A stretch of DNA of 39,156 bases. Origin: Nanobdellati archaeon (GTDB lineage Archaea; EX4484-52; WAPT01). Shown in pieces: positions 1 through 35,866 of the stretch; the first letter of the stretch is position 1; the number at the start of each line of letters is the position of its first letter. The stretch spans positions 1 to 39,156 of the forward strand of contig WAPT01000019.1 in assembly GCA_015520605.1 (NCBI GenBank), written 5' to 3'. The notes beneath the pieces were generated by a model. That model saw only the letters and a program-made list of their open reading frames with translations. It was not told where the DNA came from and made no database searches. Made by a program: the position numbers and the translations under genes.

Positions 1-10
1 CTACTTATTG

Positions 11-964
11 TTAATCCCTTATACCTTCAGGTGTTATTCTGAAGACCGCTTCTCCATCAGGTAAATGTGGAGAATCAACAAGCCTCGCGATTCTTTTGTC
101 TCCCTTACCTTTCCTTAAGTAGATTCTGAAAGTGGCTGCGTGATGTAGAACATGACCGCCAACCGCCTCAGTCGGATCGCCAAATATGACATCTGGTTTT
201 GCCATCACTTGGTTTGTTATGTAAACAACACAGTTGTATGTGTCAGCGATTTTTTGCATTGTATGAAGATGCTGGTTGAGCTTTTGTTGTCGTGACGCGA
301 GAGCACCTCTACCCACATACTCAGCTCTGAAGTGGGATGTTAAGGAATCTATAATTATCAGTTTTATCTTATATTCTTTGATTATGTCCTTTGCCTTTTC
401 CACGAGCAAAATCTGGTGGTCTGAGTTGTAGGCTCTACCCACAAACACATTCTCAAGCGTTTTTTTCGGATCCAGCCCCAAGGCGTTTGCCATCTGTTCT
501 ATTCTCTCAGGCCTGAATGTGTTCTCAGTATCTATGAATAAAGCATTACCGTTAAGTCCTCCCTTCTCTTTTGGAAGCTGAACATTTACCGCGAGCTGAT
601 GCGCGAGCTGTGTTTTTCCGCTGCCGTATGCTCCGTAACATTCCGTTATTGACTGCGTTTCCAGCCCACCGTGCAGGAGAGCATCAAGCTCCTTACTACT
701 TGTTGTAAGTTTGTTAACACTTTTCCTCTTTTCCAGCACAGCTAGCCCGGTTTCGAAACCCATGTCCAAAGCTTCTCTGGCGGCGGATATGATCTTTGCA
801 GCAACACCCTCTCCGATTTCCGCCACAGCAGCAAGCTCGGCTGGAGAAGCGGTCGCTATCACCATGAGATCCGTGTAGCCGGCTTCCATTAACTTTTCAG
901 CTATCTTTGGCCCGACTCCTGGGAGATCCTCGACGGAGGTTATCTTTTCCTTCATACTCTCCAC
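11..964 (-). CDS. radA: DNA repair and recombination protein RadA
   Basis: N-terminal HhH ([12 protein letters not shown]), GFETG polymerisation motif, Walker [21 protein letters not shown], Walker [20 protein letters not shown]; no intein. Confidence 0.98.
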
Positions 965-965
965 C

Positions 966-2000
966 CTAATTTTCTAAAAAGGCTTCAACTTCGTGTATCA
1001 ACGATGTTAACAGTGATGTATACTCCACATCACTAACCCTCATTGTTACCAGCTCCGCAAACTCCGTCAACTCATTCTTCCTAATCACACCTCTGAACAC
1101 AAATTCTTTCCCTATAATTGGGAGCACATAATCCTCAAAAAACTTTTTTTCACCCATGGTTTTAATTTTTTCCTCGATTTCATCAACACCCATGTTAAGC
1201 AATCTCCCAACATCCTTTCTAAATGCGACAAAGTTTATGGACGCAACACCATCATCGATTACTCCGCTTAAAATAAGAAGCTTATCTGGTTTTACTTCGC
1301 CGTGTTCCTCACATCTCATACCTTCCTGGAGTTTGGTTTTGCAACTGGGGCAGAGATAATGGATGACGGGGCGTTCAAATACAAGCGAAATGGCGGCTCT
1401 CGCAATTACTGCATCTCCTTCCTTTACCTGCCCGAGGTTCACACGTTTGTAGTTTCTTTTTTGAACGAGTTGAGCTGTCACAGCATTCTCCGGTACTTCT
1501 ATTTCAATCGGGACATCGAGCTTTTTAATTGAACCTTGCTTGCCAACCCGTACCTCTATTCCACCAAAATCATCCTCTCTTGTGTATCCGTTGATGATCT
1601 CTATTACATCCCCTTCTTTCACATCCTTCAGCATCTCGACCTTTTCGTTCCAGATGGATACTCTGACAACACCAGTCTCGTCCCCTGCAAGGAGGTTAAT
1701 AACCCTTCCTGTTTCATTGTTCTCTCTCGAAAACTCCCTGGAGGGGTAGATACGGAGCACCTTAACACACAGATTCACGCTGTTCAAACCGGAAATGAGG
1801 TTCCTTATCTTTAGCACCTTTGGCTTCTTCTTGACAAGCTCAACTCCGAGCTCCTTCCCCACAATTATTATCGCCCCAGCCCTTGACACCAAACCTCCGA
1901 ATTCCTCAATCTTTTCCTCAATCCTTTTCAGAACTCCCTCTCTGGAAATTCCCGCTGTCTCAACTATCTTCTCTATTAGTTCCTCCTCATTAATCTCCAT
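966..2000 (-). CDS. rpa: Replication protein A (archaeal ssDNA-binding protein; OB folds plus Zn finger)
   Basis: OB-fold motif [12 protein letters not shown], second OB fold with inserted CPSC...CEEH zinc finger; ends 1 nt before the radA start, suggesting co-transcription. Confidence 0.9.
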
Positions 2001-2085
2001 GGTGGATTTTTCAGATCCATATATTTAAAATACTCACTCACACCACTGCCGATACTGCAGACAGGGTGCCGATAGAAGGATTCAA

Positions 2086-4380
2086 CTACCCAAAGTAGCC
2101 CAACTCTTCCGGCTTTCTTAGCTCCTTTATCCTTTCTATTTTCCTCTTGAAGGACTCTATGTCGTTTTTGGTGAGGGAGGGCTTTATGACGTTCATCGCT
2201 TCTTCAAAATGTCTCATACGCACCTTTTTTGCATTTATCTTCTCTCTCAAAGTTATCAGCGCAGCCTCCCTGCATAGCGCTTCAATGTCGGCTCCTGTGT
2301 AATTTTCAGTTCTCTCCGCTATCTTCTCCAGATCAACATCGTCAGCCAGAGGCATATTCCTTGTGTGAACTTTAAGGATCTCAAGTCTGGCTTTCTGGTC
2401 TGGAGGGGGCACATAAATGTGCCTGTCGAACCTTCCTGGCCTCATTAAAGCTGGATCAAGCACCTCCGGCCTGTTTGTTGCACCTATAACTATAACACCA
2501 CCAAGTCCTTCCAGCCCGTCCATCTCCGCAAGGAGCTGTGTCACAACACGTCCCATGACCTCGTTTTCGGTTGTGAAGCTTCTTTTTGATGCGATAGCGT
2601 CAATCTCATCTATAAAGATTATAGACGGAGCCACCTGCCTTGCCTTTCTAAAGATCTCCCTTATCCTCTTCTCGCTCTCCCCTACCCATTTGGAAAAGAT
2701 CTCCGGTCCTTTTATATAAATGAAGTTGGCCTCGCTCTCATTGGCCACAGCCTTAGCTAACAATGTCTTTCCCGTTCCAGGAGGCCCATAAAGAAGCACA
2801 CCCTTTGGCGGTTTTATACCCATTCTCTTGAACGCTTCCGGGTGCTTGAGTGGCCACTCCACCATCTCTCTAAGCTGCTGCTTCTGCTTCTCAAGCCCAC
2901 CTATATCATTCCATCTTACTTTTGGCACCTCAATCATAACTTCACGCATCGCACTTGGTTCAACAACCATCAAGGCATTCTTGAAATCCTCCATGGTCAC
3001 CTGTAACTTCTCCAGCACTTCTGGTGGGAGCTCATCTTCGTCCAGATTAATCTCGGGGAGCACCCTCCTAAGAGCGGACATTGCAGCCTCCTTCACAAGC
3101 GCCGCCAGATCAGCCCCAACATAACCATGGGTTATATCGGCTATCTTCTCCAGATCAACATCGTCAGCCAGAGGCATATTCCTTGTGTGAATCTGCAGTA
3201 TTTCAAGCCTCCCGTTTCTGTCCGGCACACCGATCTCTATCTCCCTGTCAAACCTTCCCGGTCTTCTCAAAGCTGGGTCAAGCGCGTCAGGTCTGTTTGT
3301 TGCTCCTATGACTATTACCTGTCCTCTGCTCTTCAACCCATCCATACATGCAAGAAGCTGCGCGACTATTCTTCTTTCAACTTCCCCGGTAACATCCTCC
3401 CTTTTTGGGGCTATGGCGTCAATCTCATCTATGAAAATTATAGACGGAGCGTTTTCTTCAGCTTCTTTAAATATGTCTCTTATCTTCTTCTCACTTTCTC
3501 CATACCACTTACTTGTTATTTCCGGCCCGTTGATGGAAATAAAGTAAGCACCGCTCTCATTGGCCACAGCCTTAGCTAACAATGTCTTTCCCGTTCCAGG
3601 AGGCCCATAAAGAAGCACACCCTTTGGCGGCTCTATGCCCAGCCTCTCAAACAGTTCTGGATGTTTCAACGGGAGCTCTATCATTTCCCTTACCTTTCTC
3701 ACAGCTTCCTTAAGTCCACCTATATCTTCATAGGTTACCACAGGAACAGCGCCCTTCTCTTCTGCAACATCCACGCTTTGACTAAGAACCTCAACTCTCG
3801 TATTTTCTGTTATTATCACTATACCGGATGGCTCGGTCTTAACAACCCTAAAGAGCACCTCTCCAAAACCAAGAGCAAAGAGCTCATCAATTCCGAAGCC
3901 TGTGAAGAAATCGGATCTGTATGGATGGCCTCTCCTTCTTGGTGCGGGCAGAATTATATCGCCCTTAACCATAACTCTTCCCAACAACACCCGTTTCATA
4001 TGCTCTCCTGGGATGTGAACCACAACTCCCTTCTGCGCCGGAGCAAGTACAACCTTCTTGGCTTCTTTTATCTCAGCCTTTCTCACCACAACTGTCTCGC
4101 TGACGGAAACTCCAGCATTCCTCCTCGTATAACCGTCCATCCTTATTATGTCCAGTCCCGCATCGGAAGGATACGATCTGAGAGCTATGGCCGCTGTCTT
4201 TCTTTTCCCCTCTATCTCTACAGGCTGGCCTTCTTTCACTCCTATTTCGGCGAGTCTCCTGAGGTCTATTCTAACAATTCCGATGCCTATATCTGATTGC
4301 GCGCTGCTCGGTATCTCTCCAACCTTGAGTCTTATTTCCTTTTTCTTGCTTCCTCTATTTTCCCTTCCCTCTCCAACCAT
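2086..4380 (-). CDS. cdc48: CDC48/VCP family AAA+ ATPase
   Basis: N-domain ([13 protein letters not shown]), two AAA modules (GPPGTGKT twice, [10 protein letters not shown] twice, RPGRFDR twice), C-terminal YFG tail resembling HbYX. Confidence 0.98.
2318..3191. repeat. Identical 52-bp direct repeat between cdc48 D1 and D2 (2318-2369 and 3140-3191)
   Basis: gctatcttctccagatcaacatcgtcagccagaggcatattccttgtgtgaa read at both positions; encodes [17 protein letters not shown]. Confidence 0.9.
2733..3630. repeat. Identical 79-bp direct repeat between cdc48 D1 and D2 (2733-2811 and 3552-3630)
   Basis: Both copies read cgctctcattggccacagcc...ccctttggcgg with no mismatch; encodes [26 protein letters not shown]. 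Confidence 0.9.
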
Positions 4381-4434
4381 AAGTACTCTATTTGTTATAC
4401 TGAATTTTTAAATATTGGAAGAAAAAGCTACCAC

Positions 4435-5136
4435 ATGGTGAATGTCCTCAAGCTGAGGTGGGAACAGTTAAATGTTTTTCTTGGGGGAGGAGTGGAAAAG
4501 GGCATAATAACCAACGTGTACGGTGTTGCTGGCGCTGGCAAAACCAACTTTGCGCTTGAAGTGACGATAGCAGCACTCCTTGAAGGAAAAAAGACAGTGT
4601 TCATTGACACGGAGAGAAACTTTTCTCCAGAAAGATTTTTGCAGATGCATCCCAGAAAGGAAGATCTGGAAAGAGTGCTGATCTTCGAGCCATTCTCCTT
4701 CTACGAGCAACATAAAGTTATTCTAGAAAAACTTCCCGAAATCCTAAAGAAGGAGGATGTTGGTGTTGTTATCATAGATTCCATGGTGGCTCTTTATAGA
4801 CTTGAGATGAGGCACGAGAAAGCACAAGAAGTCAATGCTATGCTCAGCGAGCAGTTTGTGCAGCTTGCTAAACTTGCAAAGTATCACAACATTCCCGTGG
4901 TGGTGACATGTCAGGTTTACACACCCTTCGACACAGAGGAGCTTGAGATAGTGGGGAGAGACATCCCGAAATACTCATCGAAGTGCATGATCCTGCTTGA
5001 AAAGAAGAACTTCAACGAAAGGAGAGCAACTCTTATGAAACATCGCTACATGCCCGAGGGAGTATCCATCGATCTCAAAATAACAAATAAAGGTCTTACG
5101 CCCGCCGGATCAAGGAAGTTTGCTATCTTTAAATAG
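4435..5136 (+). CDS. radB: DNA repair and recombination protein RadB
   Basis: RecA core without the RadA N-domain: GVAGAGKT, FIDTE, IIDS, C-terminal KHR basic patch typical of RadB. Start moved to ATG 4435 because the longer ORF overlaps cdc48. Confidence 0.93.
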   Translation: MVNVLKLRWEQLNVFLGGGVEKGIITNVYGVAGAGKTNFALEVTIAALLEGKKTVFIDTERNFSPERFLQMHPRKEDLERVLIFEPFSFYEQHKVILEKLPEILKKEDVGVVIIDSMVALYRLEMRHEKAQEVNAMLSEQFVQLAKLAKYHNIPVVVTCQVYTPFDTEELEIVGRDIPKYSSKCMILLEKKNFNERRATLMKHRYMPEGVSIDLKITNKGLTPAGSRKFAIFK

Positions 5137-5163
5137 GTTTAAACACACAAAAATTAATGAGGG

Positions 5164-5748
5164 ATGGGGGTTATGGTATCTCTCTTTGACATCTTCAACA
5201 TGTCGAATGTCATAAAGAGAGGGAAATTTAGGATCTTTGGGAACTTAGAGTCCAACATCTATTTTGACGTTTCTGAGATCCTGAACAATCCACGCAACTT
5301 TGACATCCTCACCGATATGCTCGCTGATAGCGTCATGGCGATGAACCCCGACAGAGTGGCCGGGGCTTACACTTCCGGCATACCTCTTGCAACCGCCATT
5401 TCTCTCAAAACCAACATCCCCATGGTTTTCATAAGGCGAGAGCCAAAGGAGTACGGACTAACCCGGAGAATCGAGGGGAAATTGGAAGAAGGCGATCATG
5501 TTGTGCTTGTTGATGATGTTTTTACATTCTACGAGTACAATTTGCCATACATCGAGGCTATAGAAGAGGCAGGAGGAATCGTAACATACATGCTGGTAAT
5601 CGTGGACTTTGAGGTGCCGGAAGAGAAAAAGAAGCTTGCGAGGAAAGGTGTAGACCTCGTATCCCTCACAACCGTGCGGGAGATTGTGAACAAGATGAAA
5701 AAGCGTGGATTTTTACCCCAAGATTTCAAGGTCGAGCTAGAGTGTTAG
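5164..5748 (+). CDS. pyrE: Orotate phosphoribosyltransferase-like protein with degenerate PRPP-binding loop
   Basis: Type I PRTase/PyrE features (GIPLATAIS, IRREPKEYG, IEG, VVLVDDV), but the loop reads DDVFTFYEYN instead of DDV(I/L)TTGxS. Confidence 0.7.
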   Translation: MGVMVSLFDIFNMSNVIKRGKFRIFGNLESNIYFDVSEILNNPRNFDILTDMLADSVMAMNPDRVAGAYTSGIPLATAISLKTNIPMVFIRREPKEYGLTRRIEGKLEEGDHVVLVDDVFTFYEYNLPYIEAIEEAGGIVTYMLVIVDFEVPEEKKKLARKGVDLVSLTTVREIVNKMKKRGFLPQDFKVELEC

Positions 5749-7803
5749 CTTCTTTTTACTTCTTTTTTTGCAGCTGGGGTCTAAGCAGATGAACCAATGA
5801 GAGCTCTTTTTGCCTTTAGTTCGCATAATGACTCTTATAATGGGAGTACCACAGGTTTCACACACCCTCCCCGTCGGTATTATTTGACCTTTGGTTGGAA
5901 GAGGATAAGAAATTTTACATTTAGGATATGTGTCACATGACACAAATCTCTTGCCAGATTTTCCCTTTCTTATTATAAGATTGCCTCCACATTTACACTT
6001 GCCGAGTACACGCTCCTTGGATTCCATATCTTTTATGGAATACACAAGTTCCTTCCCCAACTCTTCCTCCTTTTCCTTGAGTTTATTTAGCACAGATATA
6101 AGATGGTTCTTTGCCTCCACCACTATTTCATCACTTTTTGCGATTCCTTTGCTTATTTTCTCAAGCTTTTCCTCGAACTCACGAGTTAGTTCTTCGTCCA
6201 TAATTCTTTCAGCATACTCCTTCAATATTGTTACGACCTTCTCTCCGATGGGAGTTATCTCTATTTTATTACCCTTTATGTACTTTCTTTCATATAGGTG
6301 GTGCACTATTTCAGCTCTTGTTGCCTTCGTTCCGAGGTTTCTCTTTTCAAGCTCCCTCACGAGAGAGGCAGCGGTGTATCTGTCTGGTGGAGTAGTCATT
6401 TTCTTTTCAAGCTTTACCTTATCTACGGGGTAGGTGCCATTAAGGGTGAATGCCGGCAGCTCAATCTCTTTACTTCTCAAGTAGGGTTTGTATGCTCTGT
6501 ACCAGCCTTCATGAACCACCTGCACTCCCGTTGCGATGAATTTGGCGCCATTGGCATCAAAAACAACCTTTGTGAGCATTTTTTCAGCAGGTTCCATGAA
6601 ACAAGCAAGAAACCTTCTTACGATGAGATCATAAATTTTCGCTTCATTTTTACCTAGATTTTGAGGAACCTCTCCTGTGGGGTGGATGGCCGGATGTGCT
6701 TCATCATCCTTCTTCCCTTCCTTAGGAATCAGAAGACGCTTGCTTAACAACTCCGCCACAACACTTTGATATTGTGAGATCTTTGATATACCATGCAAAA
6801 TCTTGTGAAAGTCAATTGTTCTGGGAAGCTTCTGCGAGCTCGTTCTGGGGTAGGAGATTAGGGACATTTCATAAAGCTTCTGCGCTATGTCCTGTGTCTG
6901 TTTCGGGCTGAGCTTGAAGAGCGCGTAAGCTTCAGCCTGCAAGTCGTTGAGATTGAACGACGCGGGTGGGTTGTGTTTCTTTTTCTTCCTGTTTATCTCA
7001 GCAACCCTAGCGTGTTTCGTTGCTTTCACCTTTCTGTGGAGATCTCTTGCAACAACCTCTTTTTCTATCTTACCTCCTTCATATTCTGCTTTTACCCCCA
7101 TTACCTCTATGCTGAGCTTCCAATAGGGTGTTGGCATAAACTGCCTTATCTCAAGCTCCCTGTCGTAAACTATCTTCAATGCAGGCCCCTGAACCCTCCC
7201 GCTGCTCAGTATGAAGTGTCTTCCTGCCTTTTTTACTGCGCTCATCAGAGCTCTGCTTACATTAATCCCCCAAAAATAATCTAAAATGTGTCGCGTGACA
7301 CCCGCTTCTGCAAGCCCGAAGAGAATGGTCGGTTTGGCATTCTCATACGCTTTAACAAGGTCGTCCTTTGTCAGGGTGGAGAAAAGCATACGCTGTGCAT
7401 TTTTTCTGTTACATATAAAGCGCAGGATGTTGAATCCGATAGTCTCGCCCTCAATATCGTAGTCTGTGGCTACGATTATCTTCTTGGACTTGTTGCTGAG
7501 CATTTTTATGGCAGAAATGTATTCTTTAGTATATGTCGCACTCTTACCGACAACATACAGCGGTTTCCACTCGACATCGAATACAGGGTAGTGGTTATAC
7601 GCTACCTTCTCCCTTTCCGCCAGCCCAAAAAGATGCCCTGCAGCCCCCACAACTGCTATTTTTTTGCCCTTCCTCTCTATCTCAAAATAAGGAACCTTGC
7701 CGTGCCTTTTCGTTATAATCTTTGATTCCGCAAGTGCCTGCGCTATCTTTCTTGCACTGGAAGGCTTCTCAGCTATGATGAGCTCATCGTACATTTCCAT
7801 CAT
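5737..7803 (-). CDS. topA: Type IA DNA topoisomerase
   Basis: TOPRIM IIAEKPS and ATDYDIEGE, SSGRVQGP, catalytic Tyr in ISYPRT, LGTKATR, C-terminal Cys zinc ribbons. Confidence 0.97.
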   Translation of the reverse strand: MMEMYDELIIAEKPSSARKIAQALAESKIITKRHGKVPYFEIERKGKKIAVVGAAGHLFGLAEREKVAYNHYPVFDVEWKPLYVVGKSATYTKEYISAIKMLSNKSKKIIVATDYDIEGETIGFNILRFICNRKNAQRMLFSTLTKDDLVKAYENAKPTILFGLAEAGVTRHILDYFWGINVSRALMSAVKKAGRHFILSSGRVQGPALKIVYDRELEIRQFMPTPYWKLSIEVMGVKAEYEGGKIEKEVVARDLHRKVKATKHARVAEINRKKKKHNPPASFNLNDLQAEAYALFKLSPKQTQDIAQKLYEMSLISYPRTSSQKLPRTIDFHKILHGISKISQYQSVVAELLSKRLLIPKEGKKDDEAHPAIHPTGEVPQNLGKNEAKIYDLIVRRFLACFMEPAEKMLTKVVFDANGAKFIATGVQVVHEGWYRAYKPYLRSKEIELPAFTLNGTYPVDKVKLEKKMTTPPDRYTAASLVRELEKRNLGTKATRAEIVHHLYERKYIKGNKIEITPIGEKVVTILKEYAERIMDEELTREFEEKLEKISKGIAKSDEIVVEAKNHLISVLNKLKEKEEELGKELVYSIKDMESKERVLGKCKCGGNLIIRKGKSGKRFVSCDTYPKCKISYPLPTKGQIIPTGRVCETCGTPIIRVIMRTKGKKSSHWFICLDPSCKKRSKKKLTL

Positions 7804-9095
7804 CGCTTGGACTTTGGCTCAATTTTCTTTATTCCATTCATGTATGGCCACAACACTTTAGGAATGTCCACACTGCCATCTTCATTCTGATAATTTTCAA
7901 GGATAGCACACATGGTTCTCTCCGTTGCTATGCCAGTACAGTTAAGGATGTGTACATAGCCCTTCGGTTTGCTTCCCTCTTTTTCCCTCCACTTTATGTT
8001 AAGCTTCCTAGCCTGATAATCTGTGCAGTTGCTCCCACTCACCACCTCTCTATACTTTTGCTGAGCCGGAAACCAAACCTCTATATCGTACTTTTTGGCA
8101 GCATTATCGTTCATCTCTCCGGAACATATATTTACCACCCTGTACGGCAGTCCCAGCTCCTGGTAGAACTCCTCGGCATTCTGAATCATCCTTTCATGCC
8201 AGTCCCAGCTTTCCTCCGGCAGGCAGAATACTATTTGCTCAACCTTGTCGAACTGGTGCACCCTGAAGATGCCTTTGGTATCTTTTCCATGTGCTCCAGA
8301 TTCCCGCCTAAAATTAGTTGAGAACCCCACATACTTAAGTGGGAGCTCATCCTTCAGAAACGTCTCATTCATGTGGTATGAAAGGATCGATTGTTCTGCT
8401 GTGGCTATGAGGTAGGCATCCATGCCTTCAACCTTGTATAGAGTTTCCTCAAAATCAGCAAGTTCTGAGGCCCCTTTCATGGCCTCACCACTTATCATAT
8501 ACGGCGTCCAAAGTGGTATAAATCCCTTGGCCGTTAGCTTATCGAAGGCATACCTTATTAAAGCGAGGTTGAGCAGCACGAGCTCGTTTCTTAGGTAATA
8601 GAACCTTGATCCGATAACCTTGGCAGCTCTGGCAACATCAGCAACATCGAGGATCTCTATCAGATCAGCATGCCCTTTTGGCTCGAAATCGAATCTCTTG
8701 GGATTTTCCCATGTCCTAACCACAACATTATCTTCCTCGCTCTCACCCACAGGCACGCTCTCATGTAGTATGTTTCCTATTCTGTAGCGGAGCTCATCTC
8801 TCTTCTGGAGGAGCTCGGCAGCTTTCTTCTCAAGCTCATCAACCCTTCGCTTTAGATCCTTCATTTTTTGAGCAAGATCCTCGGGAGTTGAACTTCTTTC
8901 TTTTCTCCTCTTTGCAACTTCGGAAAGAATCCTGTTCCTCTTCTCTCTCAGCTTCTGAAGCTCCCGTATGCTTTCCCTCCATTTTGCATCGTACTCCAAC
9001 ACTTTGTCCACTATGGACGGGTCTTTGAATCTTTTTCGCTCGGATTCCTTAACTATTTCGGGGTGTTGCCTTATGAAGTCCATGTCGAGCATCAC
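7800..9095 (-). CDS. serS: Seryl-tRNA synthetase
   Basis: MLD start, N-terminal coiled-coil arm, LIATAE, motif 2 FRRESG..GIFRVHQFDKVE, SGSNCTDYQAR, motif 3 ATER. Confidence 0.98.
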   Translation of the reverse strand: MMLDMDFIRQHPEIVKESERKRFKDPSIVDKVLEYDAKWRESIRELQKLREKRNRILSEVAKRRKERSSTPEDLAQKMKDLKRRVDELEKKAAELLQKRDELRYRIGNILHESVPVGESEEDNVVVRTWENPKRFDFEPKGHADLIEILDVADVARAAKVIGSRFYYLRNELVLLNLALIRYAFDKLTAKGFIPLWTPYMISGEAMKGASELADFEETLYKVEGMDAYLIATAEQSILSYHMNETFLKDELPLKYVGFSTNFRRESGAHGKDTKGIFRVHQFDKVEQIVFCLPEESWDWHERMIQNAEEFYQELGLPYRVVNICSGEMNDNAAKKYDIEVWFPAQQKYREVVSGSNCTDYQARKLNIKWREKEGSKPKGYVHILNCTGIATERTMCAILENYQNEDGSVDIPKVLWPYMNGIKKIEPKSKR

Positions 9096-9140
9096 ACATC
9101 ACCAAGAACCTTTTAATAATTCACCGAGTGTTAAATTTTT

Positions 9141-9782
9141 ATGGGTTTATTGTCTTTCTTCTTTAGAAACAAAAAGGTCGAGAAACTGGAAACTGATGTG
9201 AAAAACATAAAAAATGAGCTTGAAAGTATAAGAACCGAGATTGAAAACACGAAAGAGCTGCTTTCATCTCTGAGTTCGGCGATAAAGCTACTTGACTCAA
9301 AATTAAAAAAGGAAGCGGAAAAGTTCAACATCAAGATGGAAGAGGTTGAAGAAAAAATATCTATCTTGATCAGATCAACTAAAATCGGGGTTGAAGCTAA
9401 AAAGGAAGTAGAAAGCATAAAGTTAAAGATAGAAGAGTTGGAAAAGTTGGTGGAGAACAAAAAAATTCGTGAAAAGAAAAAAGGATCAGAACGTAAAATT
9501 CCTGATGTGGGGATCGAAGACCGCGCTTTGTCACCGCAATCATCCGACTTCATGAAAACACTATCCCACGCGGAAAGAGAAATCATTTCTGTTTTGCTAT
9601 CTTCGGAAATTCCGCTTAGCTATGAGGAGATTGCGGAAAAGTGCGGTAAGTCACCCAGCACTGTCAGAGATCACATAAACAGTATAAGGAGAAAAGCCGA
9701 CATCATTGAGGTTGTCGAAGCTCCGGACAGAAAAAAGCTCTTCAAGATAATACCTCTCGTGAGGAAGGAGCTGATTTTCTAG
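9141..9782 (+). CDS. Uncharacterised protein: N-terminal amphipathic helix, coiled coil, C-terminal winged helix-turn-helix
   Basis: MGLLSFFFRNKK N-terminus; heptad-rich E/K segment (about aa 12-108); LSHAEREIISVLL...LSYEEIAEKCGKSPSTVRDHINSIRRK wHTH with a beta-wing. Confidence 0.85.
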   Translation: MGLLSFFFRNKKVEKLETDVKNIKNELESIRTEIENTKELLSSLSSAIKLLDSKLKKEAEKFNIKMEEVEEKISILIRSTKIGVEAKKEVESIKLKIEELEKLVENKKIREKKKGSERKIPDVGIEDRALSPQSSDFMKTLSHAEREIISVLLSSEIPLSYEEIAEKCGKSPSTVRDHINSIRRKADIIEVVEAPDRKKLFKIIPLVRKELIF

Positions 9783-9790
9783 CTTGGTTG

Positions 9791-9995
9791 TTTTGTCGAA
9801 TTTTTCGACACAACTTCGACAGACATTCGACACAACTTCGACACAAACGTAATTTTTCGACACAACTTTTTTATAGAAATCAGCATGCATTAACCCACCA
9901 ACATTTTGACAACTAAATCTTTTTGTCGAATTTTTCGACACAACTCCGACAGACATTCGACACAACTTCGACACAAACGTAATTTTTCGACACAA
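9791..9995. repeat. Two 75-bp direct repeats (9791-9865, 9921-9995; one mismatch) made of phased TTCGACA boxes, separated by a 55-bp AT-rich spacer; iteron-like
   Basis: Each copy has an inverted box TGTCGAA followed by TTCGACA boxes (copy 1: 9804, 9815, 9826, 9837, 9856; spacing 11, 11, 11, 19). Copy 2 is offset by 130 bp and has T>C at 9946. Confidence 0.95.
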
Positions 9996-10052
9996 GAATG
10001 GTACGATTAACGAACATAAACTTACTAAAAACGGTGCTAGTATGTTTTAAAT

Positions 10053-11141
10053 TCATCGGGTGATCTCCACACTTTTAATGAACTCGTAGAGTTCCTTCGC
10101 CTTCCTGTTCTTCTCGAAGTGCTCTCGTATTGGTTTGATTAAGCCCTCCAAATAGCTTGCTACCGCCATCTTCAAGTCAAGAGGGTGAAGCTTGCCTTCT
10201 TTGTAATCCTTTTCCACCTCTTCGTATGACCCGTAGATACTGTCTCCGCCGTATTTTGGAGGTCTTTCAACCTTAAAATCGCTGAATGCTCTGAAAATTA
10301 TGTGCTTCACGTACTCGAGTACTGGATTATCTTCCACGACTCTCGCAGGACAGTAAGCCTTTTTAAGTTTCCTCACAATTTCTTCATAGCTGTCGTGAAC
10401 GAAGATGGCAGAATCCGGCTTACTCTTGCTCATTTTTGAAGATATTTCCTTGTCTATTTTTTCGTTCTTGTCAAACCCCTCGGTCTTTTTCGGGCCCTGC
10501 AGACCCATAAGCATGTGGTGGCTCACTATTACGGGCTTCCTCCATTTCAGTTTATCCGCGATCTCTCTCGCTAGCATGTTAACCTTTCTTTGATCAAGCC
10601 CAAGCTGGCAGATATCCACATCCAGCTGAAATATGTCGGCACACTGCATTGACGGATAGAACAGGAACGCGGTCGGGTTGCTGAGCTTTCCCACTCTCCC
10701 TGCTATTGTCAGGGCTCTTAAACCCCTCTGAATTGTGTGGTTCTTTGCTATCAGTATGACCTTCTTCCAGTACTCGGGATCATCGAAGAACTCTTTGTGC
10801 CAGATAACTTCAACCTTATTCATGTCAACTCCTGCAGCTTTCCACACCTCGACAAAATACTCACCACACTTCCTTATTTTTTCAAGATCCCCACATAGTT
10901 TGTTGTTTATCCATGCGAACGTATCAGCAAGTAAAAGTTTGAAATGCACGCCAGCTTTCATGAGATCTCTGAGTAGGAGGGGCCTAAACACCCCTACAGG
11001 CAAGTGCGCGAGCCCGCTCGGCTCAAATCCGTCGTATGCCGTAATTTTTTCTTTCGTCTCGACAAGTTCCCTCAGCTCAGCTTTGGTTACTATCTCTTCC
11101 CCCACCCCGGCTATCAACTCAAACCTCGTTTCGGCATCCAT
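10053..11141 (-). CDS. tyrS: Tyrosyl-tRNA synthetase (archaeal type)
   Basis: YDGFEPSG, HIGH variant HLPVG, YPSMQCADIF, GLDQRK, KMSKS, LHPLDLK. Confidence 0.97.
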   Translation of the reverse strand: MDAETRFELIAGVGEEIVTKAELRELVETKEKITAYDGFEPSGLAHLPVGVFRPLLLRDLMKAGVHFKLLLADTFAWINNKLCGDLEKIRKCGEYFVEVWKAAGVDMNKVEVIWHKEFFDDPEYWKKVILIAKNHTIQRGLRALTIAGRVGKLSNPTAFLFYPSMQCADIFQLDVDICQLGLDQRKVNMLAREIADKLKWRKPVIVSHHMLMGLQGPKKTEGFDKNEKIDKEISSKMSKSKPDSAIFVHDSYEEIVRKLKKAYCPARVVEDNPVLEYVKHIIFRAFSDFKVERPPKYGGDSIYGSYEEVEKDYKEGKLHPLDLKMAVASYLEGLIKPIREHFEKNRKAKELYEFIKSVEITR

Positions 11142-11181: not shown

Positions 11182-12201
11182 ATGATCGAGATAGATGGGA
11201 GTGTGGGGGAAGGTGGGGGCCAGATAGTGAGGGCAAGCGTAGCTTACTCCTGCTTCACAGGCAAGCCCGTAAGGATATTTAATATCCGCGCTAAAAGACA
11301 AAACCCAGGATTGAGAAGACAGCACGCAACGGCAATAAAGATTCTTGCAAAAATCTTCGACGCAAATGTAAAGGGCTGCGCTGTTGGTAGCAGAGAGGTC
11401 GTCTTTGAGCCATCCGGAAAAGTAAGAAGCGGAGCTTACACTTTTGATATTGGTACTGCAGGCTCCATAACTCTTGTTCTACAGGCCCTTACGTTCGCGC
11501 TGATGGGTCGCGACTCAAAGATAACTCTAACAATCAAGGGCGGCACAGATGTTCCCTTCTCTCCAGCGTTCGATTACTTCAACCACTGCTACCTCAAACT
11601 GCTATCAGTTTTTGGATACGATGCAAGCGCCGAGGTTGTGAGAAGAGGTTACTATCCAGCGGGAGGTGGCGTCGTGAAGTTCACGTTTAACGGACATGAA
11701 CCAAAGCCAATGGTGCTGGATGAATGTGAAGAAAATCCCACAAGCGTGAACATATTCGCATCCGCATCTGCTGCTTTAAAGGCGGCCAGAGTTTGTGAAA
11801 GGATGGTCGCTCGTGCAGCAAATCTGATACGTAGGGAGCTGAAAGGTATTGCGGTGAGCACGCACATACACTACTCTGATTCCCTGTCCCCAGGAGCAAC
11901 TCTTTGCATAGTTGGCGGTGCATTACCCTCAAAAATCATCGGTGCTGATGAACTGGGAAGAAAAGGAACACCTTCGGAGAAGGTCGCTGAACTATGCGTG
12001 GCCAAATTCCTTGAGGAGTACAGCTCTGGATGCGTGGATTCTCATCTTGCAGACCACCTCATTCCTTTCCTTGCGGTGTGTGGTGGTGTTATAAAAACAT
12101 CCAGAATAACCACACACACATCAACCATGATCTGGCTTGCTAAACGATTTCTTGATGTGCAATTTGAAGTGGACGAAGGAAAGGTTGTAGTCTTACAATA
12201 A
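11182..12201 (+). CDS. rtcA: RNA 3'-terminal phosphate cyclase
   Basis: IDGSVGEGGGQIVR, NIRAKR.NPGL, GTAGSITL, GGTDV, RGYYPAGGG, catalytic His in VDSHLAD. Confidence 0.95.
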   Translation: MIEIDGSVGEGGGQIVRASVAYSCFTGKPVRIFNIRAKRQNPGLRRQHATAIKILAKIFDANVKGCAVGSREVVFEPSGKVRSGAYTFDIGTAGSITLVLQALTFALMGRDSKITLTIKGGTDVPFSPAFDYFNHCYLKLLSVFGYDASAEVVRRGYYPAGGGVVKFTFNGHEPKPMVLDECEENPTSVNIFASASAALKAARVCERMVARAANLIRRELKGIAVSTHIHYSDSLSPGATLCIVGGALPSKIIGADELGRKGTPSEKVAELCVAKFLEEYSSGCVDSHLADHLIPFLAVCGGVIKTSRITTHTSTMIWLAKRFLDVQFEVDEGKVVVLQ

Positions 12202-12244
12202 CAAATAAAAACATTATTATATTCCCTCTTCCAAACATAGTAAC

Positions 12245-15200
12245 ATGTTAATAATGAAAAGAAAAAATTATTTACTCACTTTAATCTTCCCGATAACTTT
12301 GATAGTATTAATAATGTTGTTTTCTCATACATCTTTTAGTGACAAACCAAAAAACTCCGAACTTTTTGAACTACAACAAGCCATTAGGAATGACCCTAAA
12401 ATCCTCGGTATTAAAGATCTACCAGCTTTTATTCAGGAAATGAGGCATAGAGGCATAGAACTCTCCGAGAAAAATATAAATAGTGTCAAAGTTCCATTAA
12501 TTATATACTTCACAAAAAGAGCCAATCCTGCATTGATTAAGCGACTTTTGAGACTGGGTGTCAACATTACTTCCTTGTCGCCTTCTAAACGTGTGGCTGT
12601 GGTGAGGGCATCTCTAACAACCCTTCAAGTATTGGAAAAAATGCCCGGTATTGAAATTGTTGAGTTGCCAAGAGCTTACAGAATATCTAGCACCGAATCT
12701 GTGTCTCTTATCAGAGCAGATGAGGTATGGAATGTCAGGGCGGGAAATACAAACATTACCGGGAAAGGCGTTACTGTGTGTGTCATTGATACTGGTATTG
12801 ACTACACTTATCCCGAATTTGGAAATTGTTCTACACTTTATAAACCAGCTAACAAAAGCGTGAGCGTAATTAATTATTTTCTCAATATTACCGGTCCTGC
12901 AGCAGAGAACATAACGATATCCATACCCAACTTCACAGTATATTCTGTTCATATCCTCCGATACGCGGTTTACCCTGGAGATTATCTTCGATTTTACAAT
13001 ACCAATGGTACTCTGATTAAAACAATAGCTAATGGTAGTGCGGACTACGATGTGTGGACGAACCCCACAACCACCCATAATGTTACTGCGGAGATTAACT
13101 TTACGAATCCCAACTCCTTTCTAATCATAGATATGGTCGCAAACGGAACGATGGTTCCTGAGAGTCTCTCCGTATGCAAGAAGTTCGTAGGTGGTTATGA
13201 TTTTGTGAATAATGTCCCAATCCCGAAAGATGATGTTTATCACGGTACTGCGGTTGCGGCCATCATAGGGGCGAACTCATCAACGCTCAAGGGTGTTGCA
13301 CCGGGAGTGCGTTTTGCCATTCTAAAAGCATGCGATAAACACGGATTATGCTATGACGATACAATACTGAGTAGTATTTATTGGTGCATAAATAATACCA
13401 AAAAGTACAATATTTCAATTATCTCTATGAGTTTGGGCGACAACACAACCTATAACAATTCTTGTGATGATTATGAACCTATTCTTTCAGATGCGATTCA
13501 TATTGCAATTAAAAAAAACATAACCGTCGTAATTGCGAGCGGAAATGAAGGTGATCGGTACGGGATTTCCTCGCCTGCATGCATCTCCGGAGTAATTCCC
13601 GTTGGAGCAACAACCAATAACGACGCCATAGCTCATTTCTCTAACAGGGGTCCAGCTTTTGATTATTTTGTTCTGGCCCCGGGGGTTAATATCTACGTAC
13701 CAGAACTGTTGGGCATGTATGGTTATGTCAACGGTACTTCTTTTTCGGCACCGCACGTTAGTGGAGTGGTCGCCCTGATGCAACAGTTTTACAAAACGAT
13801 TTACGGCAGACTTCCACTTCCGTCTTTAATCGCTGAAAAGTTAGTTTCAACCGGGGTTAAGCTTTTTGATAACGCTACTGGCATCGAATACCCGAGGGTG
13901 GATGCGTATGCTGCCGTTCTCTCCCTCGATCCAACTCCCCCCAAGATCTCCATAATTTCTCCTCAAACTTCAAGACTTATCATCAACAAAACGTTTTTGA
14001 ATGTCACCGCTTCGGTTGTGGATAATTTTGCTTTGAAGAATGCGAGCGTACTTTTGAAGTATGATGAGGAGCAAAAATGGAATGCAGTTTTCAATGAAAC
14101 TTATGTTGGAAATGTGAGAAATGACACGATAACGGCGGACGTTAACTTCCCACAGGATGGGTTCTACACATTGAAATTCGAAGCTTGCGACTACGCGTCC
14201 TGCAACAGCTCTACAACCATATTCACGGTGGTCGATACAACACCACCTTCTCTCTCAATAAATCTAACAAACGGCACGACCTACAAAAGCTCTTCGTTAC
14301 CAGTGTATGTAAGATGCACAGACATCACACCCATTACCAACATGAAAATCTGCATAAACCAATCATGCGTTAATGTCACCTGTGCGAATGGCGGGGCAAG
14401 AATCCTTCTTCAGAATCTCACCGACGGGTGGCATTCGATCTATGTCAGAGCAAGGGATACTGCAGGAAACAACGGCATCAGCCCGACATATTTCATTAAA
14501 GTAATGGAAAATCCAAAGCTTGAATTGAAACTTCCCAAGAAAAACGGAACCCTTCTGAATCGGAGTTGGATGAACTTCAGCGTGGAGGTAAGGGATAACT
14601 CAAATCTCTCAGCGGTATGGATTGAGATAAATTCCACCATTCAGAATATAACTCTCATACAAAATCTTACACGCACGAACATACCTTACAATGTCTCTTT
14701 GGCTGATGGAGAAAACAACTTGACCATATGCGTGAACGACACGTATGGTCTCATCACATGCTCTGCGGTATTGATCGCGGTTGATACAACACCACCGATC
14801 CTCGTCGTCAACGGTTTTGATCGAGGAAATATAATGACCAGTGGGGCTCTCAAACTCAACGTTTCCGTTGAAGATACTCCCTTCAACAATTTTAGCTGTA
14901 ATCTGATACTGCAAAAGAACTATAATACACTGTGGCATCCGGTTATGAGTGGGAGCATACAACCTTCTCTGTCCAACAATGATGAAACTTTTACAAATCG
15001 ATCCATTATAAAAACACTTTCCGATGGTATGTATAAAATTAACATTAACTGCACCGACGAAGCTGGTTTGAAAACGACGTTCTCAAGGATATTTTACGTC
15101 GATACGAGGCCACCTTCATTCAGATTTCTGACTAGCCCCAATACAAACACGATCAGAGACATAATCTACACAAACGTTTCAATTCTTAACATCACATTCA

Positions 15201-23876: not shown

Positions 23877-25298
23877 ATGGCCAAAGATGTTGCGAAGCTC
23901 AAGGAATACAAAACGATAGAAAGAATCGCGGGTCCCTTGGTTTTTGTCAAGAAAGTTAAGGATGTGGCTTACGGAGAGGTAGTGGAGGTCATACTTGCAA
24001 ATGGCGAGAGGAGATTAGGACAAGTTTTGGATAGCTCCGAGGATGTAGTGGTGGTGCAGGTTTTTGAGGGAACAAGCGGAATGGATAAGGAGAACACAAA
24101 GGTGCGTTTCACGGGAGAGGTGATAAAACTTCCAGTCTCTATAGAGATGCTCGGAAGGATTTTCAACGGTAGAGGAGAGCCAATAGACGGCGGACCAGAA
24201 ATCGTGCCGGAAAAGGAGATGGACATAATTGGAAGTGCCATAAATCCTTACTGTAGGGCTCCACCATCAGAGTTCATACAGACGGGAATCTCAGCTATAG
24301 ATGGCATGAACACTCTGGTTAGGGGGCAGAAACTGCCTATATTCAGCGGGTCTGGGCTCCCTCACAACGAAATAGCACTTCAGATAGCAAGACAGGCCAA
24401 GGTCGTTGGTGAAGATGAGAAGTTTGCCGTCGTTTTTGCAGCAATGGGTATAACTCACGAGGAGGCGCAGCGCTTCATCGACGAGTTTGAGGAAACAGGA
24501 GCTCTTGAGAGAGCTGTGGTATTTCTTAACCTTGCTGATGATCCTGCAGTTGAGAGACTCCTCACACCGAGAATAGCTCTCACAACGGCGGAATTTCTGG
24601 CCTTTGATAAGGACATGCACGTGCTGGTTATCCTCACCGACATGACCAACTATTGCGAGAGCCTTCGTGAGATCTCAGCCGCAAGAGAGGAGGTGCCTGG
24701 CAGGAGAGGTTACCCGGGTTACATGTACACAGACCTCGCGACAATTTATGAAAGGGCGGGGAGGATTAAGGGTAAGAAAGGGAGCATAACCCAGATCCAG
24801 ATCCTCACCATGCCGGGAGATGATATTACCCACCCCATCCCAGACCTGACCGGTTACATCACTGAGGGACAGATTGTGTTGAGCAGAGAGCTTCACCGCA
24901 GGGGAATATACCCGCCCATAGATGTTCTGCCGTCCCTTTCAAGGCTTATGAATGCAGGGATAGGGGAGGGAAAAACAAGGGCGGATCACAAACAGGTCTC
25001 AGACCAGCTCTATGCACTCTATGCAGAGGGCAGAGATTTGCGCGGATTGGTTGCCATTGTTGGTGAAGAAGCTTTATCCGAAAGGGATAAGCTCGTGCTA
25101 AGGTTTGCAGAGCGCTTTGAAAAGGAGTTCGTGCAGCAAGACAAGCACGAGGATAGAAGCATCGAGAAAACTCTGGAAATAGCATGGAGTCTGCTATCCA
25201 TGCTGCCGGAGGATGAACTGACAAGAGTATCGCCCGCGTTCAGGAAGAAATACTACAAGGGTAGAACTAAGAAAGAGAAAAAAGAAGAGAAGGGATGA
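23877..25298 (+). CDS. atpB: A/V-type ATP synthase subunit B
   Basis: [44 protein letters not shown]. Confidence 0.99.
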
Positions 25299-25333
25299 TA
25301 CACAACAAAAATTAATCAAGGTGTGTAACTCCC

Positions 25334-25960
25334 ATGCTTGATGTGAAACCAACGAGATCGGAGCTGCTCAATCTGAAAAAGAAAATACAGCTTGCAAAGT
25401 CAGGACACAAGCTACTCAAGAAAAAAAGAGACGGCATGATAATGGAATTTTTCCGCGTACTGGAAGAGGCAAGGGAGGTGATGAAAGAGACAGCAGAACT
25501 TTACAAAGTGGCAAGAGAGCGACTGATTCTTGCAGAGGTTACTGAGGGTGCGACGAAATTAAGATCCATTTCCTTAGCTGTTCGACCTTTTCCGCCCGTT
25601 AAGCTCACGACATCCAACCTGATGGGAGTTAAGGTATCGCGCATTGAAGTGGAAGGCGGAGAATTACATATGCTGGAGAGAGGTGTCGGACTGTTGAGCA
25701 CGAAGGCGAAGATAGATGAGGCCTCATATTACTACAGGTTGTTGGTGGAAAAACTAGTGAAATACGCTGAATACGTTTCATCCATCCAGAAATTACTGGA
25801 TGAAATAGAAAAAACAAAAAGAAAGGTTAACGCACTTGAATACAACATAATCCCACGATTAGAAGATGCGGCTAACTTCGTCAGACAGAGACTTGAAGAG
25901 ATGGAAAGAGAAAATGTTTTCAGATTGAAAAAAGTAAAGAGTAAGAAGCGGAGAGCATAA
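25334..25960 (+). CDS. atpD: A/V-type ATP synthase subunit D
   Basis: KPTRSEL, GHKLLKKKRD, EIEKTKRKVNALE, LEEMERE. Confidence 0.97.
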   Translation: MLDVKPTRSELLNLKKKIQLAKSGHKLLKKKRDGMIMEFFRVLEEAREVMKETAELYKVARERLILAEVTEGATKLRSISLAVRPFPPVKLTTSNLMGVKVSRIEVEGGELHMLERGVGLLSTKAKIDEASYYYRLLVEKLVKYAEYVSSIQKLLDEIEKTKRKVNALEYNIIPRLEDAANFVRQRLEEMERENVFRLKKVKSKKRRA

Positions 25961-25965
25961 TCGTT

Positions 25966-26184
25966 TCACTTTCTCTCCTTAAGTTTCCAGTAAACTTTCT
26001 TGCTTTCTCCGATCCTCGCTATCCTGTATTCGCAATCTATCTTCCCAGCATCCTTGAGTCTGTAACAGTGCGTGTTCGCGGTGCTCCAGCTTATCCCCAA
26101 CTTCTTTGCTATTTGGTATGTGGTGAGCGGTTCTTTCGCTTCTTTCAGCACTCTAATTATAGCGTTATCTATGCTTTCGGGCAT
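25966..26184 (-). CDS. Small stand-alone winged HTH protein (putative transcription regulator)
   Basis: IIRVLKEAKEPLTTYQIAKKLGISWSTANTHCYRLKDAGKI wHTH; start set to ATG 26184, preceded by GGTG. Confidence 0.8.
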   Translation of the reverse strand: MPESIDNAIIRVLKEAKEPLTTYQIAKKLGISWSTANTHCYRLKDAGKIDCEYRIARIGESKKVYWKLKERK

Positions 26185-26546
26185 GAAAAAACACCATTCT
26201 CGACGTATCGAGATATAAACCTGATTCAAAATAAGACCACAACCTCTATATAAAGATTTCGGTTTTGAATAGTTGATTTATTGATGTTCTTACTTTTATT
26301 TTTTCCTTCCGACAAAAATACCCGTAAAACACATCTCCTTTATAATAAAATAAAACCTGCTTATCACAATACCTTAACTAATGTGATCTATATATTCGGA
26401 TAAAATACGCAACTAAGCATCTGTTTTCGAATCTCATGAACTAAGCAAGTTTGATTTCAAAAAAATATTTTAAACTATTCTTCTTTCTTGTTTCACGACT
26501 TTCCCTGTGGGTGATTTATTTTAAAGTTTTTCATTAAGGTAAGTTT

Positions 26547-26762
26547 ATGGAAACATTAGTAAATAAACGACCTGGGGTGTATGTTGTTAAAGACGTTTTA
26601 GGAGGCTATTGGTGTAAACAGAAACTTTATGAACTTGGCATATGTCCTGGAAAAGAAATAAAATTAATAACTTTTTGGCATAAAGGAGCGGTGTTGATTA
26701 GGGTTGAAAATACTAAAATAGCACTTGGTAGGCGCATGGCCAGTAAGATAATTGTGGAATGA
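26547..26762 (+). CDS. feoA: Ferrous iron transport protein A
   Basis: KLYELGICPGKEI...IALGR.MASKIIVE SH3-like FeoA signature; upstream of feoB. Confidence 0.92.
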   Translation: METLVNKRPGVYVVKDVLGGYWCKQKLYELGICPGKEIKLITFWHKGAVLIRVENTKIALGRRMASKIIVE

Positions 26763-26934
26763 TGTTTTTATCGTGGTATGTCGGTGGTACTGCCAAATCT
26801 GATCATATAAAATAATTAAGACGGGCGATTGTATTGATGCTAATATATTCTAAAAAATTTCAATTAATTTTAATTGCACGTATTTATTTGATGCTTGTCC
26901 TTTTCACAACAAAACATTAACATAAAAGGGGTAA

Positions 26935-28872: not shown

Positions 28873-28893
28873 AAGTTAAAAAAGAACAAATCT

Positions 28894-35789: not shown

Positions 35790-35866
35790 GGGGCCGTAGT
35801 GTAGCTTGGTTATCACTCCGGCCCGGGGCGCCGGCAACCCCGGTTCAAATCCGGGCGGCCCCACCA
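35790..35866 (+). tRNA. tRNA-Pro(GGG), intronless, CCA encoded, C at position 33
   Basis: Acceptor GGGGCCG/CGGCCCC plus A-CCA; D arm GTGT..TCAC; anticodon stem CCGGC/GCCGG with loop CCGGGGC; T arm CCCGG-TTCAAAT-CCGGG. Confidence 0.95.

Follow-up and report, generated by a model that had tools for sequence, protein, structure and literature searches.

In the plasmid centromere systems ParR-parC (R1), TubR-tubC (pBtoxis), and SopB-sopC (F), a small adaptor gene lies beside some 7 to 12 short repeats; in parC and tubC the repeats form two clusters with a period near one helical turn, and TubR is a winged-helix protein. Chromosome segregation in archaea is still largely open. The systems described, SegAB and HpaAB, are from Sulfolobales and haloarchaea. 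SegB binds segS, a chromosomal, centromere-like site beside its operon (PMC12139799; PMC8682754; PMC11381335); its partner is SegA, a ParA-type protein encoded alongside, and segS is located upstream of the operon, many distal sites being bound in addition (PMC12139799). The chromosome-membrane tethers RacA, RocS, and RicO of Firmicutes combine a small helix-turn-helix (HTH) DNA-binding domain with a coiled coil through which they self-associate and use no dedicated motor, RocS and RicO adding a short C-terminal amphipathic membrane helix (10.64898/2026.03.06.710092; PMC11500499; PMC13042908); their sites cluster close to the origin, and one ricS site is found beside ricO (10.64898/2026.03.06.710092). 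In Bacillus subtilis Noc, a nucleoid occlusion protein, an N-terminal amphipathic helix brings DNA bound in a sequence-specific manner to the membrane (PMC4331003). Here we analyze a gene and an adjoining repeat array in a 39,156-nucleotide stretch of DNA from a Nanobdellati archaeon (contig WAPT01000019.1; this whole stretch is called the window below), which together look like a chromosome-anchoring or centromere-like device of a kind not described in archaea so far.

The window is contig C19 of assembly G000, which comprises 863,228 bases in 27 contigs, is 90.7% complete, and belongs to an archaeon of the DPANN group. Handles beginning with G, C, and L denote genomes, contigs, and loci, and f1, f3, f4, f6, and f8 are families of the same phylum. 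The gene encodes a 213-amino-acid (aa) protein whose family has no name and occurs chiefly in DPANN archaea, and the repeat unit begins at position 9791, 8 nt past its stop codon. Gene and array form a module that is unique in its genome, is conserved among relatives, and carries lineage-specific boxes; there is a high probability that the protein binds the TTCGACA array. An AlphaFold2 model (mean predicted local distance difference test score [pLDDT], 84) resolves the protein into a hydrophobic-then-basic N terminus, a long helix, a linker, and a winged helix. The parts of the module are as follows.

9141 to 9782, + strand: gene for the 213-aa protein, from translation of the open reading frame (ORF); start MGLLSFFFRNKK, TAG stop codon at 9780-9782
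9141 to 9176, + strand: N-terminal peptide MGLLSFFFRNKK, aa 1-12, with basic residues after a hydrophobic patch (alignment A1); presumed membrane-targeting or partner-binding peptide
9147 to 9482, + strand: long helix, aa 3-114, from AlphaFold2 with a block-mean pLDDT of 87-97 over most of its length; presumed coiled-coil oligomerization rod
9483 to 9536, + strand: linker, aa 115-132, disordered (pLDDT below 50), variable in length and sequence and poorly conserved in alignment A1
9540 to 9779, + strand: C-terminal winged helix-turn-helix, aa 134-213 (134-212 in the model), with presumed recognition helix STVRDHINSIRRK
9791 to 9865, + strand: array copy A, with an inverted box at 9794-9800 and direct boxes at 9804, 9815, 9826, and 9837 (11-bp steps) and at 9856
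9794 to 9810, no strand: palindrome TGTCGAA-TTT-TTCGACA (TGTCGAA-N3-TTCGACA), formed by the inverted box and the first direct box, in the same arrangement in G001; likely nucleation site for a dimer
9866 to 9920, no strand: spacer between the copies, 55 nt with 31% G+C (44% in the window) and a T6 run at its start
9921 to 9995, + strand: array copy B, with an inverted box at 9924-9930 and direct boxes at 9934, 9945 (TCCGACA), 9956, 9967, and 9986

The two 75-nt copies are 99% identical (one difference), and their twelve T(T/C)CGACA boxes lie within positions 9794-9992; each copy carries five direct boxes and one inverted box. A preliminary description of the locus, made from the letters alone, had reported ten direct and two inverted boxes, the 8-nt gap, a setting between serS and tyrS, and no mobile-element genes nearby, and our analysis confirmed each of these; the absence of mobile-element genes applies to the 16 neighboring ORFs scanned (14 to 25295). 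The 11-bp phasing that it had also proposed stood in part. A strict phase is limited to the four direct boxes per copy and to this genus, the fifth direct box following after 19 bp, and arrays elsewhere have periods of about 8, 9, 10, and 12 bp as judged by eye. Within the ORF itself lies a thirteenth box, TGTCGAA, inverted (9713-9719, - strand), where the conserved EVVEAPDRK stretch is encoded; G002 keeps this box, G001 lacks it, and it probably arose by chance. We also considered the array as an RNA element and rejected it: the fold of 9783-10000 gave a z score of -1.9, with 8 of 200 shuffles folding equally well. An Rfam scan of the window returned only a tRNA at 35790-35863.

T(T/C)CGACA occurs 24 times in the window, compared with a mean of 9.14 in shuffled sequence (standard deviation, 2.95; largest count, 17), and none of the 100 shuffles reached 24. 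The box occurs 167 times across the 863,228-base assembly, and nowhere but in the two array copies do three or more of these boxes cluster. The best count of any 7-mer per 250-nt interval was 11 at the array and at most 5 anywhere else, making the array the densest short-repeat cluster of the assembly and its sole composite site; no further pair of boxes with the array's spacing, allowing up to one mismatch, was found in the whole assembly. This uniqueness fits a single cis-acting locus rather than a regulon. Contigs from two public runs of one study span the junction between the gene and copy A, the spacer with copies A and B on its two sides, and the junction between copy B and the tyrS side, and the depth over the array repeat is about twice that of the flanks; since the two runs may include the source sample, the bridging contigs do not count as independent support.

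The preliminary description had proposed testing whether repeats consistently lie beside or inside homologous genes, and they largely do lie beside them. We scored as an array at least four copies of one 8-mer within 500 nt, at loci with at least 250 nt available, and scanned metagenomic contigs with a profile of a 19-sequence subfamily. Arrays were found downstream of the gene at 33 of 41 homologous loci and upstream at 3 of 42; in G000, 11 of 3412 background intervals passed, two of them being this locus. Three metagenomic loci duplicate one sequence and many others are close kin, so these figures are to be read as counts and not as independent trials. The array follows the stop codon directly in five families of the phylum, in one genome outside it (G264), and at most metagenomic loci. 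In G001, where the protein is about 50% identical, a two-cluster TTCGACA array with a 33-nt spacer again lies after the gene and before tyrS; its boxes are conserved with those of G000, and the spacer between the clusters does not align. The boxes are likewise conserved in G002, whose contig terminates within the array. The gene order serS-gene-array-tyrS-rtcA is common to the window and to family f6, whose proteins are only 22-24% identical; the locus is chromosomal, with synteny kept across two families.

Covariation of the box with recognition-helix residues, which the preliminary description had also proposed to test, was seen as distinct pairs in seven lineages. Judged from the sequences, the box differs by lineage in step with the presumed recognition helix.

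f1: box TTCGACA; recognition helix STVRDH
f8: box TTAATCGA; recognition helix ITVKGY
f6: box ATAGTATCG (with GGTTACC); recognition helix NTVKVY
f4: box CATAACTA; recognition helix PTVRTY
f3: box TGTTRTAACA; recognition helix ATARAY
G264 (outside the phylum): box GGTGACA, in clusters; recognition helix TTVKNL
Metagenomic group: box CATTRYAATG; recognition helix NTVRV(Y/N/I)

The metagenomic subfamily carries tandem palindromes, CATTATAATG or CATTGCAATG, often split into two clusters by roughly 200 nt of AT-rich sequence. A motif-by-lineage matrix was zero in every off-diagonal cell; its diagonal is circular, as the motifs were taken from those very loci. The neighbors at other loci encode a DUF373 protein, TATA-binding protein (TBP) with ThiI/THUMP, an ArsR-S-layer-like protein, an AAA_18 kinase-like protein, or a Toprim protein, in varying orientations. 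As the neighbors vary in both identity and orientation, what accompanies the array throughout is the gene itself. No gene for a partition ATPase, an actin-like protein, or a tubulin-like protein adjoins the module in any lineage examined, including the 22 neighbor ORFs of other loci.

Two further observations concern individual loci. In f3, a second repeat, GTGCCTAA, that is, (T/G)ATAGTGCCTAA, is present in 4-5 copies 100-400 nt upstream of the gene, at L047 and L048 (G016 and G028) and at L046 (G004), on top of the downstream TGTTRTAACA array. At L010/L014 (G041:C33, ~11787-13207; the G041 assembly has 8% contamination), a homologue of full length lacks an array within 500 nt and is followed by a 95-aa open frame that matches the winged-helix part only; this locus may be rearranged or duplicated.

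The protein had been taken for an orphan, and that claim was not sustained. A word-based search recovered relatives at 82%, 81%, 48%, and 35% identity, and an 11-member profile matched 591 cluster representatives at an E value of 0.001 or lower, 116 of them at 1e-10 or lower. Family members are mostly about 200-250 aa long, with a median of 218 aa among the proteins collected; several short, weak profile matches probably belong to another family. No Pfam or NCBIfam family covers these homologues, and the neighbors in a protein atlas are unnamed "helix-turn-helix type 11" clusters, commonest in Nanobdellota. A 199-aa paralogue, L053 (G009:C17:19067-19663; locus positions 1501-2097, + strand), has the same N-terminal peptide (MGFLESLFGDKK) and coiled coil without a winged helix, and has no NCBIfam match. 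The peptide-plus-rod part therefore exists alone as well.

The domain order proposed in the preliminary description agrees with the AlphaFold2 model, which gives a helix at residues 3-114, disorder at 115-132, and a winged helix of MarR/ArsR type at 134-212. The winged helix is the most conserved part of the family. Its best Foldseek match to ArsR/SmtB and MarR chains had an E value of 2.3e-4, and VIA-align Z scores against MarR/ArsR-type folds were 10-12.6 over 68-88 aligned residues. Pfam gave generic HTH matches at residues 138-192, mostly below cutoff, and coiled-coil noise over the rest: HTH_20 scored 25.3 bits (cutoff, 27), HTH_5 scored 18 (cutoff, 22), and the generic HTH_24 was marginally over at 22.3 (cutoff, 21.9). 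Negative Pfam results for this protein refer to the 25 best of 40 matches at an E value of 1 or lower; NCBIfam returned 10 matches, none above cutoff. Prediction of a homodimer from two copies and alignment A1 gave scores of 0.18 and 0.15 against a mark of 0.42, which has no bearing either way.

At the N terminus, M1 and G2 are invariant in alignment A1, and L3 and F8 nearly so. Among the 149 M-starting representatives, 125 have at least three of the residues LIVFWM at positions 2-9 together with at least two K or R at positions 6-16, and 49 start with MG. Searching residues 1-30 against PDB sequences gave chance-level matches only (E values of 1 or higher), and a regular-expression search for the N-terminal motif in all frames of G000 yielded no informative paralogue. 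An ESCRT-III/Snf7 reading of the N terminus was considered and set aside; no Snf7 was found in the 90.7%-complete genome or among the Pfam matches listed for the protein.

We then asked where the module lies relative to the Orc1/Cdc6 genes. At least one such gene is present in 40 of 42 genomes of the phylum, and each of five genomes checked has two, the array being adjacent to neither. In G000 they are on contigs other than that of the module (C12:11283-12371 and C3:43816-44769); the distance is about 20 kb by synteny, as the gene order of G001 puts reversed C12 right against the start of C19. On shared contigs, the distances from the module are these.

G001: main Orc1/Cdc6 paralogue, 20.5 kb
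G264: main Orc1/Cdc6 paralogue, 41 kb
G011: main Orc1/Cdc6 paralogue, 92 kb
G014: second Orc1/Cdc6 paralogue, 4.3 kb

The region from orc1/cdc6 to the module (window positions 1-9100 plus C12) is collinear with G001:C4 10-40 kb and is rich in genes of DNA metabolism (RadA, an OB-fold protein, a RadB-like protein, and topoisomerase IA). GC skew tracks the coding strand, both in the window and in G001:C4, and so cannot locate the origin. A stretch of about 700 nt with only small antisense ORFs of at least 70 aa lies 1.6-2.3 kb past the main orc1/cdc6 of G000 (C12:13985-14709; L109 ~985-1710). It contains a tract rich in A and T, and three CATCCCGG(GAT) elements lie next to an inverted repeat containing GTGGAG; the stretch has no Rfam match and is the second densest 7-mer cluster of the genome; it could be an Orc1/Cdc6 origin or an unknown RNA gene.

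The evidence fits a self-contained pair, a site-specific protein and one cis site of its own, located in the vicinity of orc1/cdc6 without coinciding with it. We propose that the C-terminal winged helix would read the TTCGACA boxes, with binding probably nucleated on the palindrome and then spreading along the direct repeats in each 75-nt copy. Subunits would be linked into dimers or higher oligomers by the 110-residue helix, and the hydrophobic-then-basic N-terminal peptide would tie this complex to the cytoplasmic membrane or to a partner bound there. Each chromosome would then carry a single nucleoprotein anchor, some tens of kilobases away from orc1/cdc6, with no adjoining motor gene. Plasmid centromeres and SegB-segS likewise place an adaptor next to its site, but they need an adjacent motor, and a centromere-like anchor is therefore favored. 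For the whole chain of binding, oligomerization, membrane attachment, and segregation by a self-contained, origin-proximal, centromere-like tether, we put the chance at a little under even. More tentative still is the possibility that this is the first chromosomal centromere-and-anchor of DPANN archaea, in which a single protein on its own array would be coupled by its peptide to the membrane or to an orphan MinD-type ATPase and which would have arisen independently of RocS/RicO.

Several points weigh against the tether. Binding of the protein to the boxes, to the membrane, and to itself is presumed, as is a role in segregation. Across eight members, residues 2-12 have a modest hydrophobic moment (0.17-0.51) that does not stand out within the protein; it does not discriminate, because the coiled coil is amphipathic too. 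All four loci of the f110/f118 subfamily, which matches well (recognition helix STVKNH), have no array within 500 nt on either side, the next gene lying 27-54 nt past the stop codon, so the array is not obligatory for the family; four copies of an AT-rich 8-mer at L089, inside that next ORF, which is convergent, we take for chance. Across the survey, 8 of the 41 loci did not pass the repeat threshold, some of them with degenerate arrays by eye. Proximity to the origin is judged by the distance to orc1/cdc6, and that distance was measurable in four genomes only, since the remaining assemblies are fragmented; two of the four, G001 and G011, share ancestry. Genes are oriented away from the locus in G001 (divergent) and toward it in G011 (convergent), with no pattern in G264, and for this inconsistency we dropped an orientation switch as evidence of an origin.

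Some of the data could also be accommodated by an ordinary MarR/ArsR-type transcription factor whose array serves as operator for the downstream gene, for its own gene, or against convergent read-through, and MarR/ArsR/SmtB repressors are indeed the closest matches of the winged helix. At nine metagenomic loci, the array occupies a 134-204-nt gap ahead of a co-directional gene for a 180-290-aa protein, identified by Pfam as ThiI/THUMP in all four of the nine that were scanned; both facts also count against the tether. The f3 repeat upstream of the gene, GTGCCTAA (three loci), would suit an operator as well. On the other hand, the genes on either side of the array in this genus and in f8 are convergent, which leaves it no promoter to control, the downstream gene varies among lineages in identity and direction, and the 45-nt promoter region of the gene has no box. 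Some 10-14 sites in two clusters with no second site in the genome would be unusual for an operator, which would also leave the long helix and the conserved N-terminal peptide without a role. We consider this explanation unlikely, though the foremost of the alternatives to a tether. An iteron-type origin or accessory site, with the protein as initiator or regulator, is improbable. A gene beside iterons resembles plasmid Rep modules; here, the clusters flank an AT-rich stretch (55 nt at 31% G+C in the window, about 200 nt at several metagenomic loci), gene orientation diverges from the locus in G001, and an Orc1/Cdc6 paralogue is 4.3 kb away in G014. Against these stand a spacer of just 33 nt in G001, the convergent orientation in G011 and the patternless one in G264, the lack of any helicase or primase gene as a constant neighbor, and a protein with no AAA+, Rep, or second winged-helix domain. 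The proposal of a non-Cdc6 initiator plus origin in the preliminary description is thereby weakened: Orc1/Cdc6 genes are on two other contigs, the protein has no ATPase or Rep domain, and in the five genomes checked the two Orc1/Cdc6 genes are never beside the array.

The N-terminal peptide could instead activate an orphan ATPase of ParA/MinD type rather than bind lipid, the array complex being a centromere and the protein its cargo adaptor. In several partition systems, the centromere-binding protein uses a basic N-terminal peptide to activate its ATPase, and the peptide here presumably resembles the N terminus of bacterial MinE. Two MinD_arch-type genes are found elsewhere in G000 (C15:54810-55580, 269 bits against a cutoff of 201.75; C24:67606-68376, 177 bits). 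These MinD-type genes and the Mrp-type genes are, however, on contigs other than that of the module, no ATPase gene adjoins the module in any lineage examined, and MinD-type genes are common in archaea irrespective of this family; we give this adaptor a small chance. Smaller again is that of a polar DNA barrier, an RTP- or Tus-like roadblock to forks or transcription, or of another single-site function such as a recombination or resolution site. In B. subtilis, a winged helix encoded beside its own sites serves as the terminator protein; ten of the twelve boxes here point in the same direction, as a polar barrier would lead one to expect, the array sits between convergent genes in the genus, and gene orientation converges on the locus in G011. 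Yet the locus is near Orc1/Cdc6 wherever this is measurable, not opposite to it, boxes in other lineages are palindromes without polarity (e.g., CATTATAATG), and no recombinase gene is among the nearby ORFs scanned.

The remaining features of the locus are those of a housekeeping region. The SerRS (seryl-tRNA synthetase) gene (7800-9095, - strand) lies upstream and is divergent from the gene, the gap between them being just 45 nt; downstream, and convergent with the gene, is a class I Tyr/Trp-type tRNA synthetase gene (tyrS; 10053-11141, - strand). The gene set of the window comprises RadA, an OB-fold protein, Cdc48, a RadB-like protein, topoisomerase IA, SerRS, the gene itself, TyrRS, RtcA, an S8 protease, and the A-type ATPase operon. 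One further element precedes the gene.

9110 to 9119, + strand: TATA-like element CTTTTAATAA, from reading of the sequence, ~26 nt ahead of the ATG

We take this element to match the archaeal TATA consensus; it is probably the promoter of a leaderless or near-leaderless transcript. Oligo-T runs act in termination in archaea, and the T6 run of the spacer is a possible termination signal for the gene. A scan for bacterial-type promoters and terminators gave results at chance level only, and none of the RNA data sets listed contains 9100-10060. Further along, G+C falls to 0.35-0.39 around 25-29 kb (25000-29000), compared with 0.44 overall; this segment covers the end of the A-type ATPase operon, an apparently ORF-poor stretch (25960-26935), and a 645-aa ORF (26935-28872).

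We found no description of this family or of a DPANN segregation device in a literature search that left most subscription journals outside its reach, so absence is not proven; the part of a preprint on complete Nanobdellota genomes that was available (10.64898/2026.05.13.725050) makes no mention of such a module. A conserved, self-contained protein-plus-site module near orc1/cdc6 is a concrete candidate for archaeal chromosome segregation, and one that can be tested with a small protein, a 200-bp DNA fragment, and a 12-residue peptide. Even without such a role, the analysis provides a large unnamed family of 591 representatives, a binding-site rule that predicts sites just past the stop codon, and seven or more helix-box pairs, each specific to a lineage, in which the evolution of winged-helix specificity can be studied. 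If the module is a centromere and anchor, it would be a minimal segregation device for tiny cells, and the rapid co-evolution of box and recognition helix would offer a natural set of orthogonal protein-DNA pairs.

Comparison with known systems sets the module apart from the repressors and initiators that share single features with it. The C-terminal 80 residues have the winged-helix fold of MarR and ArsR/SmtB repressors, which dimerize via flanking helices and bind one or two promoter operators; the protein here has in their place a 110-residue N-terminal helix and a conserved peptide, and its sites lie past the stop codon. No MarR-family match was among the 25 best Pfam matches of 40, and the HTH_20 and HTH_5 matches were below cutoff. 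At Orc1/Cdc6 origins with origin recognition boxes (ORB) the initiator is an AAA+ protein with a C-terminal winged helix, its gene lying next to inverted ORB elements on both sides of an unwinding element, whereas this protein has no AAA+ domain and true Orc1/Cdc6 genes are elsewhere. Plasmid Rep-iteron modules have two winged helices or another Rep fold and are mobile; here there is no Rep match and a single winged helix, in a housekeeping context that is syntenic in two families. MinE has a membrane-targeting peptide at its N terminus, then a MinD-contact helix and the topological specificity domain; no match to its family was among the Pfam matches listed, and the presumed likeness is confined to the N-terminal peptide. 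The Dip divisome-positioning system, whose DipA, a GTPase that binds membranes, has DipB and DipC as partners, was judged unrelated; the words "winged," "helix-turn-helix," and "coiled" do not occur in the accessible text of that paper (PMC13228585).

Among partition systems, TubR-tubC comes near, since a winged-helix adaptor beside tandem repeats is also found here; no TubZ-type gene is present beside the module, among 16 ORFs of the window and 22 neighbor ORFs of other loci, and the neighbors are SerRS and TyrRS. Plasmid centromeres have an adjacent motor (parM, tubZ, or sopA) and belong to mobile replicons, whereas this module is chromosomal and syntenic and has no motor, and the folds of ParR and SopB differ from that of the protein. 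More generally, type I and type II partition and SegAB rely on an adjacent NTPase of ParA, ParM, or SegA type, and none lies beside the module in any lineage. Unlike SegAB, the module has no adjacent ATPase, places its array downstream, and is without a second site in the genome. As a ParB homologue, Noc binds sites dispersed over the chromosome, in contrast to the single locus here. Members of the ParB/Noc family have an N-terminal, CTP-binding ParB domain and a ParB-type HTH; no ParB-type domain was among the 25 best of 40 Pfam matches or the 10 NCBIfam matches, and the model has no globular N-terminal domain.

The closest working analogues, by analogy of design, would be the RacA/RocS/RicO tethers. 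RocS and RicO have the same three modules in reverse order, the protein here carrying its peptide at the N terminus and its DNA-binding domain at the C terminus. The HTH domain of RacA, RocS, and RicO is N-terminal and of MerR type, whereas the winged helix here is MarR/ArsR-like, with no detectable sequence relationship and in an archaeal host; the sites of RicO (nine) and RacA (25) are dispersed, whereas the twelve here form one tight cluster beside the gene. We conclude that the protein is not a member of the RacA/RocS/RicO group, but that its working principle may be the same.

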